Positions 50,050 to 53,640 of a stretch of 64,000 nucleotides of DNA are shown here, piece after piece. The DNA lies in the NCBI GenBank assembly GCA_016866495.1, contig VGMG01000003.1:3557-67556 (forward strand), read 5' to 3'. The stretch is from Chlamydiota bacterium (GTDB taxonomy: Bacteria > Chlamydiota > Chlamydiia > Chlamydiales > RGXB01). The translations under genes were made by a program, and so were the position numbers. The number at the start of each line of letters is the position of its first letter. Within the stretch, counting starts at the first letter, position 1. The notes under the pieces are model-generated. The model saw nothing but the letters and a program-made list of their open reading frames with translations, ran no database searches and was not told the origin of the DNA.

Positions 50050-51357
50050 ATGCATCCGGTAGATTCTTTTTGTAAATCGCCCCATCTTTTTATCGAGAAT
50101 ATAGATTTTGAAGAACCTACAACGCCGAAAACTTTAAGCCCTACCTCTGCCGTCTTTGTCCCAAACGAAGACCGCTCAACGGTGAATTTTATTGAAAATC
50201 TTCACCAAATGAGTGTGAGACAGGTGCATGAGTTTTTACAATACAACTACAAACCGTTTTTCATGCATTCCAAAACAGAAAAACTTGAAGAGCTTTTTTT
50301 GCGCGAAGAAATGCAGCTTGGGTTAGAAAATCTTTTTTGGAATAAACCCTGGGCCCTTTTTACTTTTCTTGATCTTTTCCCTAAATGGGACTTTCAAATG
50401 TTCAAGTGCAATTACGATGGTTGTATACATAGAGCTTTTAACGAAAACCCCTTTCGTTTTCGACATTATCTGGATCGCCCCATAATCGCTCAATTCCTTT
50501 TCCAAAAAAGCGATTTTGAAAAACTTTCTTTTTATACAAACTGTAGAGGCTTTTGGCACCATTTTCCTAAAGAGCTTTCCTCTCCCCTTATCGAAGTTTT
50601 TAAAAAATTTGACGAGAATTTTTTAAAAAAAGGGGATCTCGTTGAGGTTATGGAAATGTTCTTCCCCTTAATCCACCCCCGTGCCCAGAAATCTTTTTTG
50701 AGTATCAATTCTCTTTTTAAACTTTTACTGACTCATTTTAGGTGCGATAGCGAAAGATTGGCTAGCTTTTTCCGAGCCGATATTTTTAATAACCCCCTAG
50801 AACAAAAGTTGTTTTTTTTCTCTTTCCATAAAGAAGAGGTGCAGCGACAAATCATCGCTGAAATACTTTTACAAAAGGGGGAGATGGGACAACCCTCTAC
50901 TGAGCAATCATGGGCTTTTCGTAGTCTCGATAGGGTTCCCCACAATTTTTTCCCCCATCATTTGCTTCATTTTTCTATGAACACCCCTTACTACAACTCT
51001 CTGAGATTAGTGCAACAACAGGCATTGGACGACATCAAGAGACACACGATGAAAATCGTTAAAGAAATATCCAAAGAGCCGGAAAAAATCGATCTACTTG
51101 ACCTAGATCATGAATTTTTTTTATCCGAGCAGGGCTTGGCCAACATTGACACCTCTTTCGACCTTAAAAGCTCTTTAATGAGGCTCCCTTTTGGGCAATT
51201 TGTGTTTGTAGTTAAATATAACCCTGAATTCAGAAGTTTGTTTCATCAGGATATGGGGCTTCATCATTCGGTTTGTGAAATTTTGACTTCCGACGAGGAG
51301 GTGATTTTCCAACACCACTCCAAACATTTACAAAATTTGGTCGGATCGCTTTCTTAA
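50050..51357 (+). CDS. hypothetical protein
   Basis: 435-aa ORF with no motif recognised. Its last 20 nt resemble the B half of the 35-bp repeat that follows. Confidence 0.5.
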   Translation: MHPVDSFCKSPHLFIENIDFEEPTTPKTLSPTSAVFVPNEDRSTVNFIENLHQMSVRQVHEFLQYNYKPFFMHSKTEKLEELFLREEMQLGLENLFWNKPWALFTFLDLFPKWDFQMFKCNYDGCIHRAFNENPFRFRHYLDRPIIAQFLFQKSDFEKLSFYTNCRGFWHHFPKELSSPLIEVFKKFDENFLKKGDLVEVMEMFFPLIHPRAQKSFLSINSLFKLLLTHFRCDSERLASFFRADIFNNPLEQKLFFFSFHKEEVQRQIIAEILLQKGEMGQPSTEQSWAFRSLDRVPHNFFPHHLLHFSMNTPYYNSLRLVQQQALDDIKRHTMKIVKEISKEPEKIDLLDLDHEFFLSEQGLANIDTSFDLKSSLMRLPFGQFVFVVKYNPEFRSLFHQDMGLHHSVCEILTSDEEVIFQHHSKHLQNLVGSLS

Positions 51358-51392
51358 TTTTCCCCTCCCCTATTTTGGTCGGATCACTTTCT
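51358..51392. repeat. 35-bp direct repeat, left copy
   Basis: ttttcccctcccctattttggtcggatcactttct; 33/35 identical to 53556..53590. Confidence 0.9.
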
Positions 51393-51627
51393 TTTCAAAA
51401 AGGGAATACGGCCTCCACTAGTTGGTTTTTGAATGCCTTTATAGGGTCTTAATGGCGTATAGCCTCCTTATCATCTTGGGAGCGGTAATATTCCCTTGTC
51501 GGTTCTGAAGTGCCCTTTGAAGCGCTGCGTTTAAGCCTCAGTGATCACCGGACGTTTTGTTTTATAGACCTTCTCATGCACCTCTTTAAAGAGCTGGTAC
51601 GAATCCAGTGTGTTCATCCCGTCCAAA

Positions 51628-51847
51628 ATGGTTGACGATCTAACCATTTCAGAGGTGCTGGAGTGGTTGAAAGCACCCCAAGATGTCTCTTCCATGCCTT
51701 TCGAAAAAACATAAAGGGCCCCCCCTGGAGCAGCTCCCGAAAAATTATGTGGAGTGGCTTGCCTCGAGCGTAGCCTTAGAAAAACCTGACAGCCAGATCC
51801 TTAAAAAGGCCTTGAGTGTCCATTTTCAAGATTTTGTATCTGTCTGA
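51628..51847 (+). pseudogene. frameshifted small gene, DUF3820-like (MPFGKxKG...P..Y..WL pattern)
   Basis: Frame 1 reads MVDDLTISEVLEWLKAPQDVSSMPFEKT*. The adjacent frame reads KKHKGPPLEQLPKNYVEWLASSVALEKPDSQILKKALSVHFQDFVSV*. The junction lies in the A6 run at 51704-51709. Confidence 0.4.
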
Positions 51848-52154
51848 TTATTCTTTTAAAAAAGGGAGATTTCTCGGTGCTGTGAGTGATTGATTTTTTT
51901 AAGTTTTTATCCAAGGAGCGCTAGAATTTCGTCGAACCCTATGCAAATGGTGGCTGACAAACAAACCTCTTTTCAAATAGCCCCCGTAATAAGGGGGTAG
52001 CTCCCGGCTACCAAATCGCACCTTAACGGATCAATTCAAATTTTAAAAAAGAGTCCGATAGCAAGAAAAAAAACTGGGCTTTTATCAAGGTTTTTTGCAG
52101 GAAGGCAAAAAGTTCTGTCAAAAAGCCAAAAGAGGTTTGATATTTTAAAGAGGA

Positions 52155-52727
52155 CTACATCACTACACAATTGTCATTTTTTTTCTCTGCCGGTTTTTTC
52201 GGTTCCCCTGCTGCCTTAGGCTGGGGATCTAATTTAGCCGAGGATTGTGCCACTCTTGGCGCTACTGGTCGGACTAGCGAGCTTGCCGCTCCCCCTCCTG
52301 CCGCTGCCGGTTTTTTCGGTTCCTTTGCTGGCATAAAACTGGATGGAACCGTAAGTTTTTTAACTTTGTAAATTTTAGTTTCTTTACTTGTAAAGATCTG
52401 TATTTGCCATCCATCATGATTTTGTTCGACAATACAAACCTTGTAATCTATAATTTTTTCTAATAAGTACTCTTCAAGTGCTTTTGGGTTAGTATCATGT
52501 TTACTAAGAAGTTTTATTAGCCTTTCGTCGGTTACATCTAATTTAGCCAAGGGCTGTGCCACGATTGGCGCTGCTGGTTGGACTAGTGAGCTTGCTGCTA
52601 CCCCTCCTGCCGCTGCCGGTCTTGCTGGCGGTTGTTGGACTGGCGCTCCCCCTCCTGCCACTGCCGGTCTTGCTGGCGGTTGTTGGACTGGCGCTCCCCC
52701 TCCTGCCAAAGATAGAAGTTTTACCAT
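52155..52727 (-). CDS. hypothetical Pro/Ala/Gly-rich repeat protein
   Basis: GGGAPVQQPPARPA(V/A)A occurs twice, and an AASSLV(Q/R)P.AP.VAQ..AKLD module lies on both sides of a ~60-aa core. The repeats are locally GC-rich. Confidence 0.5.
   Translation of the reverse strand: MVKLLSLAGGGAPVQQPPARPAVAGGGAPVQQPPARPAAAGGVAASSLVQPAAPIVAQPLAKLDVTDERLIKLLSKHDTNPKALEEYLLEKIIDYKVCIVEQNHDGWQIQIFTSKETKIYKVKKLTVPSSFMPAKEPKKPAAAGGGAASSLVRPVAPRVAQSSAKLDPQPKAAGEPKKPAEKKNDNCVVM
52621..52708. repeat. 48-bp tandem repeat (about 1.8 copies) within the CDS
   Basis: cttgctggcggttgttggactggcgctccccctcctgccactgccggt is repeated. In addition, an 83-bp dispersed copy pair lies at 52229-52311 and 52538-52620. Confidence 0.85.
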
Positions 52728-52831
52728 AATTTCGGTTTATTTATTTTAAGAAAAAATAAGAAATGTTACAATTCGTCCTTAAGCAGGGGCGTGGCGTCCT
52801 TCTTAGGTTTTAAAAATTATAAGGAGCGACT

Positions 52832-53473
52832 ATGACCCGCGTAAATCCGGTATCTTCACAACCAATCAGTACATCCCTTTCTATTTTAGTGTCTTACAAA
52901 GAGAAGTTGGCCAAATTGGTTAACGAGATATGGCACCGTGTGAAATGGTCCTTTTCTTTGATAGGATTCCCTATCACCTATAAGCTTAAAGGGTACGCCT
53001 GGTCTCATGATATTCATGAAGAGGGGAGTAAAAAGGTGACACTTGGTGCCATCCCATTTTTTAAGCCAGACGGGGGGCATACCGTTCGCATATCGATGAT
53101 TGAAGATTGGGAAGAGCGGTTTATTGGTAAGAGCGTCAAAGACCAGTTCACTGAAACAGTCCGTTGCCCCACAAGGGATTTTGGCCCGGTCGATGTAGAA
53201 ACAATATCTAAAGGGGTTGAAGCTATAAAAACAGCTCTTAACGCAAACAAATCTGTCTATATCCACTGTAAAGCCGGCGTAGGCAGAAGCGGCGCTGTTG
53301 TTGTAGCCTGGATGATGTCTGACATGGCTGCTCGAAAATTTAATTCCCTTGACACGGACGAGCTTTACAATGCGGCCAAAAAAGCTGTTCAAAAAAGGAG
53401 ACCCCAGCTCAATGTTTGTTCGGAGGCTCAAATCAAAGAGTGGTATAATACAAAATATGTTCATGCATATTAA
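52832..53473 (+). CDS. Cys-based dual-specificity / PTPMT1-like phosphatase
   Basis: P-loop VYIHCKAGVGRSGAVVVAWMM (HCxxGxxRS). Confidence 0.75.
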   Translation: MTRVNPVSSQPISTSLSILVSYKEKLAKLVNEIWHRVKWSFSLIGFPITYKLKGYAWSHDIHEEGSKKVTLGAIPFFKPDGGHTVRISMIEDWEERFIGKSVKDQFTETVRCPTRDFGPVDVETISKGVEAIKTALNANKSVYIHCKAGVGRSGAVVVAWMMSDMAARKFNSLDTDELYNAAKKAVQKRRPQLNVCSEAQIKEWYNTKYVHAY

Positions 53474-53555
53474 TCACCATAGTCGACTAAATAGGGTTCG
53501 GGTTGAATAAAAAATTCCGGACCCCTTTTCTTTTTTAAAAATCTTTATTCGTCGA

Positions 53556-53590
53556 TTTTCCCCTCCCCTATTTTGGTTAGATCACTTTCT
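53556..53590. repeat. 35-bp direct repeat, right copy (followed by a partial third A-half at 53596-53614)
   Basis: ttttcccctcccctattttggttagatcactttct, then gaatg, then ttcccctccccgatttagg. Confidence 0.9.
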
Positions 53591-53640
53591 GAATGTTCCC
53601 CTCCCCGATTTAGGAATAAAAGGGGGAAAGGAAAAAAGTT

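Follow-up and report, generated by a model that had tools for sequence, protein, structure and literature searches.

The genome of an uncultured chlamydia carries, at a site where its relatives have only a short spacer, an insertion of about 2.2 kb that is bracketed by 35-bp direct repeats and consists of pieces of another lineage's chromosome. The insertion lies in a window of 64,000 nucleotides, which is the whole stretch of DNA analyzed (Chlamydiota bacterium, GenBank assembly GCA_016866495.1, contig VGMG01000003.1, positions 3,557 to 67,556 of the forward strand); positions given without a prefix refer to this window. The window is part of contig C3 of a metagenome-assembled genome (G000) of 1.39 Mb in 51 contigs, with 40% G+C and 94% completeness. 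A sequence-only reading of the window had drawn attention to the repeats and proposed that they might be the core of an attachment (att) site at the ends of an old mobile element. From comparisons with related chlamydiae, we conclude that the module very probably arose by lateral transfer within the genus and illegitimate integration, and was then pruned to two effector-like genes.

The repeats are copies of a native target sequence

Each copy of the 35-bp repeat consists of two halves, A and B. The left junction of the module reads B'-A-B and the right junction A-B-A', an arrangement that had been described from the window itself and that is borne out by the sequence: the two 35-mers are identical at 33 of 35 positions, and their 33-nucleotide core has two matches in the window (with 0 and 2 mismatches) when none of 100 shuffled sequences was matched. 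All three copies of A and all three copies of B found in the window are located at the module. A search of all 1.39 Mb located the 35-mer, allowing up to 8 mismatches, and the 38-mer B-A unit, allowing up to 9, at these two junctions and nowhere else; the repeat is therefore not a generic intergenic sequence and does not belong to a repeat family. With regard to the earlier reservation that A could be a recurrent terminator motif, the 12 A-like matches elsewhere each carry 2 mismatches and are simply C-rich terminator arms. An RNA gene as the target was also rejected, given that the window has no tRNA or tmRNA gene and that positions 49500-55500 give no Rfam match above threshold.

The origin of the two halves becomes clear from the site as it exists in relatives. 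B' corresponds to the final six codons (LVGSLS, followed by the stop codon) of an ORF for a 435-aa protein, for which a Pfam search returned no family. Orthologues of this protein are present with conserved synteny in genomes G005 and G006 and in the Logan lineage L057 (46-48% identity), as well as in G003 and G001 (35%). Because these outgroups have the same C-terminal pattern (NL..S[LF][SF]), B' is native, and the outgroup codons for this pattern are the homologue of B. Similarly, the spacers of the empty sites contain a C-rich hairpin arm straight after the stop codon (e.g. GCCTCCCCTGTTTTG...AGGGGAG in G005) that is the homologue of A and A', and hairpins equivalent to that of A' are found in the empty sites of G005, G006 and L057. 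Thus, both halves of the repeat are native to the target, and the repeats are duplicated target sequence.

The order RuvB, SpoIID, 435-aa gene, GH18 gene (on the opposite strand), TrpRS and Pkn kinase is kept in four congeneric species and a fifth lineage. These comprise G005 and G006 (RuvB ~85% identical), G003 and G001 (RuvB ~70% identical), and the L057 lineage (SRR27412187). In all five, the 435-aa and GH18 genes are separated by only 45-250 bp and the insert is absent, which confirms that the 2.2 kb is an insertion. The search for an empty site was therefore successful, although the ancestral B'-A-B-A' configuration predicted for it was not found. Instead, each of the five empty sites holds a single B-A unit, formed by the 3' end of the gene and the terminator arm, and the A-B junction that creates the 35-mer is found in none of them.

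The enclosed DNA is ordinary chromosome of a congener

When positions 50900-54100 were compared by blastn with the genomes of relatives, the interval 51391-53553 proved to be collinear with contig C1 of G003 (locus L017, 5173-10329) and contig C12 of G001 (locus L018, 2559-7534). The alignment falls into four blocks of 85-90% identity, with fragments reaching 94%, and the donor-type homology stops within 2-3 nucleotides of the inner edges of the repeats. In G003 and G001, this segment is an ordinary part of the chromosome, located between pdhCB and a gene for a 1144-aa protein. It comprises the 3' part of pdhA (E1_dh), genes for an RNase T-type exonuclease with a QSregVF_b tail and for a NUDIX hydrolase, a gene for a Pro/Ala-rich protein of 571 aa (G003) or 529 aa (G001), and a gene for a dual-specificity phosphatase (DSP) of 217 aa. 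The pdhA, exonuclease and NUDIX genes are intact at these donor-type loci, and the left breakpoint of the insert falls within the coding sequence of pdhA.

The module measures ~2.16 kb, compared with 5157 bp for the native segment in G003 (L017). The difference stems from three internal deletions, which correspond to L017 positions 5409-6657 (1247 bp) and 6990-7479 (488 bp) and to ~1240 bp of the Pro/Ala gene. The first deletion joins pdhA debris to exonuclease debris at 51627-51629. The second, with its junction at 51947/51948, cuts 488 bp out of the NUDIX gene and leaves 7 nucleotides of its start joined out of frame to its last 33 nucleotides. These deletions account for the 0.8 kb without ORFs that had been noticed in the window, which is made up of 239 nucleotides of pdhA (minus strand), the final third of the exonuclease gene, the NUDIX fusion and spacers. 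The lack of ORFs is thus real, but the frameshifted small gene that had been suspected there is no gene of its own; it is the tail of the exonuclease gene. A 1-nucleotide indel polymorphism among strains is present within the exonuclease debris, at 51718.

An intact pdhCBA-exonuclease-NUDIX locus of the recipient itself, on contig C2, permits a direct comparison. The module fragments are 65-78% identical to these genes and 88-94% identical to G003 and G001. The cargo, described earlier as atypical for the window, is foreign to its position. A maximum-likelihood tree of two fragments separates the module, G003 and G001 from the own C2 copy, G002, G004, G005 and G006 with 100% ultrafast bootstrap support. 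The synonymous divergence (dS) between the module phosphatase and that of G003 is 0.12. This value compares with 0.11-0.26 between G003 and G001, and with saturation between G000 and G003 for TrpRS and the exonuclease gene. G005 and G006, which are the closest relatives, have an orthologue of neither cargo gene and carry only paralogues of the phosphatase (44-46% identity). The G+C content, which the sequence-only reading had proposed to compare with the flanks, is 0.434 for the module, at the 93rd percentile of same-size windows of G000 (mean 0.403, standard deviation 0.022), and matches the donor-type loci (0.433-0.441). Since the fragments can derive only from intact genes, the transfer went from the G003/G001 group to the G000 lineage, and to a non-homologous site. 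As judged from these sequence relationships, the donor clade is the G003/G001 species group, although the sampled genomes of this group are ~10% diverged from the module.

The filled site is not peculiar to one assembly. The junctions recur at 99.3-100% identity in at least 13 contigs of independent assembly, which derive from seven JGI samples, five Logan runs and one ENA assembly; one JGI contig of 33 kb spans the whole module.

Several further observations concern the donor-type locus. A variant of the G001 group (L064; ENA ERZ17175178, k141_470889, positions 2280-2599) matches the exonuclease-NUDIX spacer without gaps at 92.5% identity, and within this spacer it is nearer to the true donor than G003 or G001. 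With regard to co-occurrence of the donor lineage with G000, G001-type contigs came from other sample series, and an exact look-up of the G001 phosphatase returned nothing. The native pdh loci of G000, G005, G006 and G002 have ~3.4 kb between the exonuclease and NUDIX genes; in G000 the additional ORFs encode proteins of 1072 aa (C2:73359-76577) and, after the NUDIX gene, 339 aa (C2:77019-78038). G003 and G001 have the Pro/Ala and phosphatase genes in place of these ORFs. The pdh locus is a plasticity zone of the genus.

Table 1. Coordinates of the insertion, its flanks and the corresponding native genes of G000
Feature	Position	Strand	Remarks
435-aa gene, left flank, native	50050-51357	+	C-terminal six codons and stop are B' (51337-51357)
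Left junction	51337-51392		B' 51337-51354 (TTGGTCGGATCGCTTTCT), TAA stop 51355-51357, A 51358-51374, B 51375-51392
Left 35-bp repeat copy	51358-51392	+	Duplicated target sequence; A homologous to the outgroup terminator arm after the stop codon (CCTCCCCTGTTTTG in G005)
pdhA C-terminal fragment (pyruvate dehydrogenase E1 alpha), foreign pseudogene debris	51391-51629	-	89% identical to G003 L017 5173-5409 and G001 L018 2559-2795, within a 353-aa E1_dh gene
Exonuclease 3' end (RNase T-type, QSregVF_b/DUF3820 tail), spacer and first 7 nt of NUDIX gene, foreign debris	51627-51947	+	88-94% identical to L017 6657-6990
Last ~33 nt of NUDIX gene and spacer downstream of Pro/Ala gene, foreign	51948-52154	+	89% identical to L017 7479-7702
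Pro/Ala-repeat protein, 190 aa	52155-52727	-	C-terminal third of donor-type 571/529-aa protein; ends KKPAEKKNDNCVVM (polybasic stretch and CaaX box)
Divergent intergenic (promoter) region, transferred with both genes	52728-52831	.	Contiguous with block 52708-53553, which corresponds to L017 9481-10329 (90% identical)
Dual-specificity/atypical Cys phosphatase, intact, 213 aa	52832-53473	+	P-loop HCKAGVGRSG; Pfam DSPc (PF00782) 47.5 bits, cut-off 33.5
Phosphatase 3' region, hairpin and T-run, right end of foreign DNA	53474-53555	+	Hairpin GGGTTCGG...CCGGACCC, then CTTTTCTTTTTT; donor-type homology stops at 53553
Right junction	53556-53610		A 53556-53572, B 53573-53590, GAATG spacer, A' 53596-53610
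Right 35-bp repeat copy	53556-53590	+	A 53556-53572, B 53573-53590
A' and partner arm	53596-53633	+	Native hairpin between the convergent 435-aa and GH18 genes; fold -15.6 kcal/mol
GH18 chitinase-like gene, right flank, native	53641-54978	-	Pseudogene here, with two in-frame stops
Own pdhA	C2:71410-72453		65-78% nucleotide identity to module fragment
Own exonuclease gene	C2:72561-73259		73% identity to module fragment

Two genes of the cargo have survived

Among the genes of the insert, those for the phosphatase and for a shortened Pro/Ala protein are still open. The presence of a Cys-based phosphatase had been recognized from the window alone and is confirmed by the match to the DSPc profile (Table 1). 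By virtue of this above-cut-off match and its HCx5R(S/T) P-loop, the predicted protein belongs to the dual-specificity/Cys-based phosphatase superfamily. It shares 85% and 81% amino-acid identity with its counterparts in G003 and G001, respectively. Its relatives in the PDB are archaeal protein tyrosine phosphatases, PTPMT1 and LSF2, and the alignment to entries 9e9l and 5z5b takes in the upstream Asp. The protein therefore has the HCxxGxGRSG P-loop and aligned upstream Asp in common with PTPMT1-like and atypical DSPs (PF00782; PDB 3rgo, 5z5b and 4kyq), but differs from them by an N-terminal extension of ~85 aa that contains no known domain. Scans for promoters and terminators gave counts, including those of promoter-like hexamers, no higher than in shuffled sequences. 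Elsewhere in G000, a short contig (C37:1-1563) contains two tandem paralogous DSP phosphatase genes, ~40% identical to that of the module.

The second survivor had been described as a Pro/Ala-repeat protein. Its repeats are as described, and the protein is a truncated one that represents the C-terminal third of the 571/529-aa donor-type protein. The remaining ORF now starts from an ATG in what used to be the 5' leader and consists of Pro/Ala repeats, a small domain and a tail. The full-length donor protein contains, in its N-terminal part, the motifs DVAGDG[KY]CQLRAL and VKVG[GA]HWKA, which by eye only resemble those of OTU-type cysteine proteases; sequence searches of Pfam and the PDB gave no match, and a single-sequence AlphaFold model of the 529-aa form (pLDDT 38.8) is too poor to use.

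The CVVM C-terminus, a CaaX box, is invariant in the three orthologues (G000, G003 and G001), whereas the residues before it vary; in G000 they read KKPAEKKNDN. Endings of the type C-a-a-X are rare in this genome, occurring in 6 of 1435 ORFs of at least 100 aa. Effectors with a CaaX box are prenylated by the host in Legionella (AnkB, PelC and PelE; PMC13081727) and Salmonella (GtgE; PMC13423502). The protein resembles these effectors in its C-terminal motif and, in G000, in the lysine-rich stretch that precedes it. It has no sequence similarity to any of these proteins, however, and has lost its N-terminal two-thirds in G000. From what is established for the Legionella and Salmonella effectors, it is reasonable to infer that the CVVM protein may be prenylated by the host. 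Another protein that may be prenylated in this way is encoded by a 101-aa ORF of G000 (C15:24521-24826, minus strand), which has a Pro-rich basic tail and a CaaX-like CILM end (...PPQSTPSTPKKESCILM).

Variation at the Pro/Ala gene is of two kinds. Among strains, all indels in the ORF preserve the reading frame (one of 9 bp and one of a 48-bp repeat unit) and are its only variation, as opposed to the 1-nucleotide indel in the debris, which hints that the ORF is being maintained. The 48-bp unit is part of a tandem repeat at 52597-52708 (2.3 copies) whose copy number differs between samples: contig Ga0194122_10018649 has lost one unit, and contig Ga0194127_10156858 has the 9-bp deletion, at 52352-52360. 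Between species, the proteins of G003 (L017 7688-9403) and G001 (L018 5020-6609) are only 39% identical, compared with 97-99% for the flanking genes. By its sequence variation, the Pro/Ala gene is a hypervariable, effector-like locus.

How the foreign DNA may have been joined to its target

In the history that we favor, a ~5.2-kb piece of chromosome, extending from inside pdhA to the DSP phosphatase gene of a lineage of the G003/G001 group, would have entered an ancestor of G000, perhaps during co-infection of one host cell and by ComEC-type uptake. A ComEC-type gene (PF03772) is found in G000 at C2:143817-144569. Illegitimate, i.e. non-homologous, recombination would then have joined the piece into the short spacer between the 435-aa and GH18 genes. 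Native sequence of the target would have been duplicated in the process, B being the final codons of the 435-aa gene and A the 5' arm of the terminator between the two genes. Three later deletions destroyed the redundant housekeeping fragments and took away two-thirds of the Pro/Ala protein from its N-terminus. They left the phosphatase gene, the divergent promoter region and the CaaX-tailed 190-aa remnant open, and the two open genes may have been retained as host-directed effectors.

Illegitimate integration is recognized by an insert that is closer to another lineage's chromosome than to the recipient's own paralogues, and by the lack of extended homology between donor flanks and target. 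Here, the insert has 88-94% identity to the donor group versus 65-78% to its own paralogues, and a dS of 0.12 versus saturation. No extended homology of donor flanks with the target is present, and the genes on either side are those typical of the recipient clade. Because there are three copies each of A and B, compared with one in the outgroups, a single staggered-cut duplication is not sufficient to explain the junctions. As the most economical history, we propose that a 38-bp tandem duplication probably first changed B-A into B-A-B-A, and that the insertion then followed with a 35-36-bp target duplication of A-B. The TAA/GAA spacer is absent beside the insert, and the two 35-mers are the most similar pair of copies (33/35, compared with 32/38 for flanking units u1 and u3), and both observations fit this two-step history. 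As an alternative, a triplicated B-A unit might have been hit exactly at a unit boundary.

A number of observations weigh against this history. The three A and three B copies, versus one B-A unit in outgroups, call for an additional step that is unobserved. To our knowledge, a target duplication of 35 bp is long for known processes. The best local alignments between donor flanks and target are at background (p 0.08-0.35), and microhomology is thus not demonstrated; at the joints themselves there is an overlap of at most 2 nucleotides on the left and a TCTTAATT match on the right (p = 0.08), with sampled donors ~10% diverged. A pattern scan of metagenomes returned filled junctions only, and no pre-insertion allele of the G000 species was found. 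Nor did a protein search turn up a nearer relative whose site could be an intermediate; its clusters reached at most 46-48% identity. Finally, the ratio of nonsynonymous to synonymous divergence (dN/dS) for the phosphatase is ~0.9 relative to G003, and selection is therefore not shown by this measure. However, the ratio is high between G003 and G001 as well (0.68), and so it holds little information on selection.

A single replicative event with several template switches, similar to microhomology-mediated break-induced replication or fork stalling and template switching (MMBIR/FoSTeS), could also convert B-A into B-A-B-[insert]-A-B-A. The nascent strand would slip back within the B-A unit, copy foreign DNA, and return behind its point of departure. 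Such a route needs only the one B-A unit that outgroups possess, the hairpin at the site could stall replication forks, and the donor flanks show weak similarities to the B/A junction, such as TCTTAATT. However, these similarities are not significant, at least four switches would be required, and we found no chlamydial precedent in the literature searched. We therefore regard this route as unlikely.

Non-homologous joining of a chromosomal fragment, as we favor, has a documented parallel. In Acinetobacter baylyi, double illegitimate recombination integrates fully heterologous DNA (Huelter and Wackernagel, 2008, PMID 18194157, as cited in PMC8116780 and PMC12359135). Both cases involve foreign chromosomal DNA without mobility genes or extended homology, and breakpoints that ignore gene boundaries. 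The chlamydial case differs in that it took place naturally, in an uncultured bacterium that lives obligately inside cells, and in that the place of a small deletion is taken by a target duplication of 35 bp against a tandem background of 38 bp, for which microhomology at the joints is not demonstrated.

A second parallel is lateral gene transfer between co-infecting Chlamydia strains, for example the exchange of tet(C) in C. suis (PMC5293829). Here too, chromosomal DNA is exchanged between related chlamydiae, and the ComEC-type gene is present in G000. However, those cases are homologous replacements at the same locus, whereas the module occupies a non-homologous position, and the housekeeping genes of its recipient have reached synonymous saturation in comparison with the donor group.

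The module does not behave as a mobile element

The architecture of the module raised the possibility of an integrative element, complete or in remnant form, whose 35-bp A-B core would be an att site acted on by a tyrosine recombinase in trans. Like att-flanked islands and other integrative elements, the module has near-identical direct repeats exactly at both ends (33/35, with homology ending within 2-3 nucleotides of the inner edges), lies beside the 3' end of a gene, and has an empty site in relatives. Three tyrosine recombinases are also encoded in G000, on contigs C5, C11 and C24, i.e. on contigs other than C3.

However, the other features of such elements are lacking. A Pfam search of all module ORFs returned DSPc only, with no recombinase or transposase domain, as had been noted from the ORFs of the window, and no recombinase gene adjoins the module. 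No A or B motif is found within 20 kb around the homologous segment in G003 or G001, and therefore the donor side offers no attP-like counterpart that a recombinase acting in trans could recognize. The repeats are wholly derived from the target, and the empty sites lack the A-B junction where a single copy of the core would be expected. The cargo corresponds to ordinary chromosomal DNA of a congener, and its left end falls within a housekeeping gene, pdhA. Moreover, the repeat is present nowhere else in the genome, and the filled form alone is seen in the at least 13 assemblies described above. An att-type origin is highly improbable in light of these findings, and this part of the sequence-only reading is not supported.

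Nor does the module resemble a transposon or insertion sequence. A transposase is absent, terminal inverted repeats were not found (the end-to-end inverted alignment scores 8, compared with a null mean of 8.2), and both module and repeat are single-copy in the G000 genome.

Two further explanations fare worse still. The paralogous native locus on contig C2 could suggest that the module is an old within-genome duplicate of the pdh-exonuclease-NUDIX region, but the identities (65-78% to the own copy versus 88-94% to G003 and G001), the fully supported tree grouping, and the lack of Pro/Ala and phosphatase genes at the native loci of G000, G005, G006 and G002 make this exceedingly improbable. An assembly chimera of two co-occurring chlamydiae might be suspected because G000 is metagenome-assembled and because five Logan contigs all end inside the module, but this notion can practically be dismissed, as both junctions recur in at least 13 samples and three pipelines, the 33-kb contig spans everything, and the deletions and ~10% divergence of the module are found in no sampled donor. 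The five independent Logan contigs end at exactly position 51661, in the exonuclease fragment, which may reflect a graph branch from a co-occurring donor-like chlamydia or the nearby indel at 51718.

Other features of the window and its relatives

The native gene on the right flank is a pseudogene in G000. This GH18 gene is intact in the outgroup L057, where it encodes 453 aa, and it is called as three pieces in strain contig Ga0194119_10002268, indicating that decay has gone further there.

The G000 genome has 14 pairs of short direct repeats separated by at most 20 kb, of which one was checked. This pair consists of 63-bp copies at 9241-9303 and 19474-19536 that are 97% identical and 10.2 kb apart. 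Both encode the motif FQKEFKELQDMLKELQGSLNR, which is terminal in one ORF (128 aa) and internal in another (522 aa); as a shared coding motif, the pair was rejected as a second bracketed module.

Implications for gene gain in chlamydiae

Gene exchange in Chlamydiae has mostly been described as homologous replacement between co-infecting strains. It is less clear how the reduced genomes of these obligate intracellular bacteria gain new effector genes, and the locus described here preserves one such gain in nature with unusual completeness, from the donor-type locus and the five empty sites to the exact breakpoints, the duplication of the target and the later pruning. The comparison also corrects three local annotations, in that the frameshifted small gene and the ORF-free stretch are debris and the Pro/Ala protein is a truncated remnant. 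The locus reveals neither a new mobile element nor a new mechanism, and is a tidy case of a known process.

A bolder interpretation, which we consider distinctly unlikely, is that environmental chlamydiae move cassettes of host-directed effectors between species to non-homologous sites, by an unrecognized process that duplicates targets of ~35 bp at terminator hairpins or short tandem repeats, and that the accompanying housekeeping DNA is then pruned. If this were true, effector gain by this route would be recurrent in the phylum and the locus its first dissected case, rather than a one-off accident.

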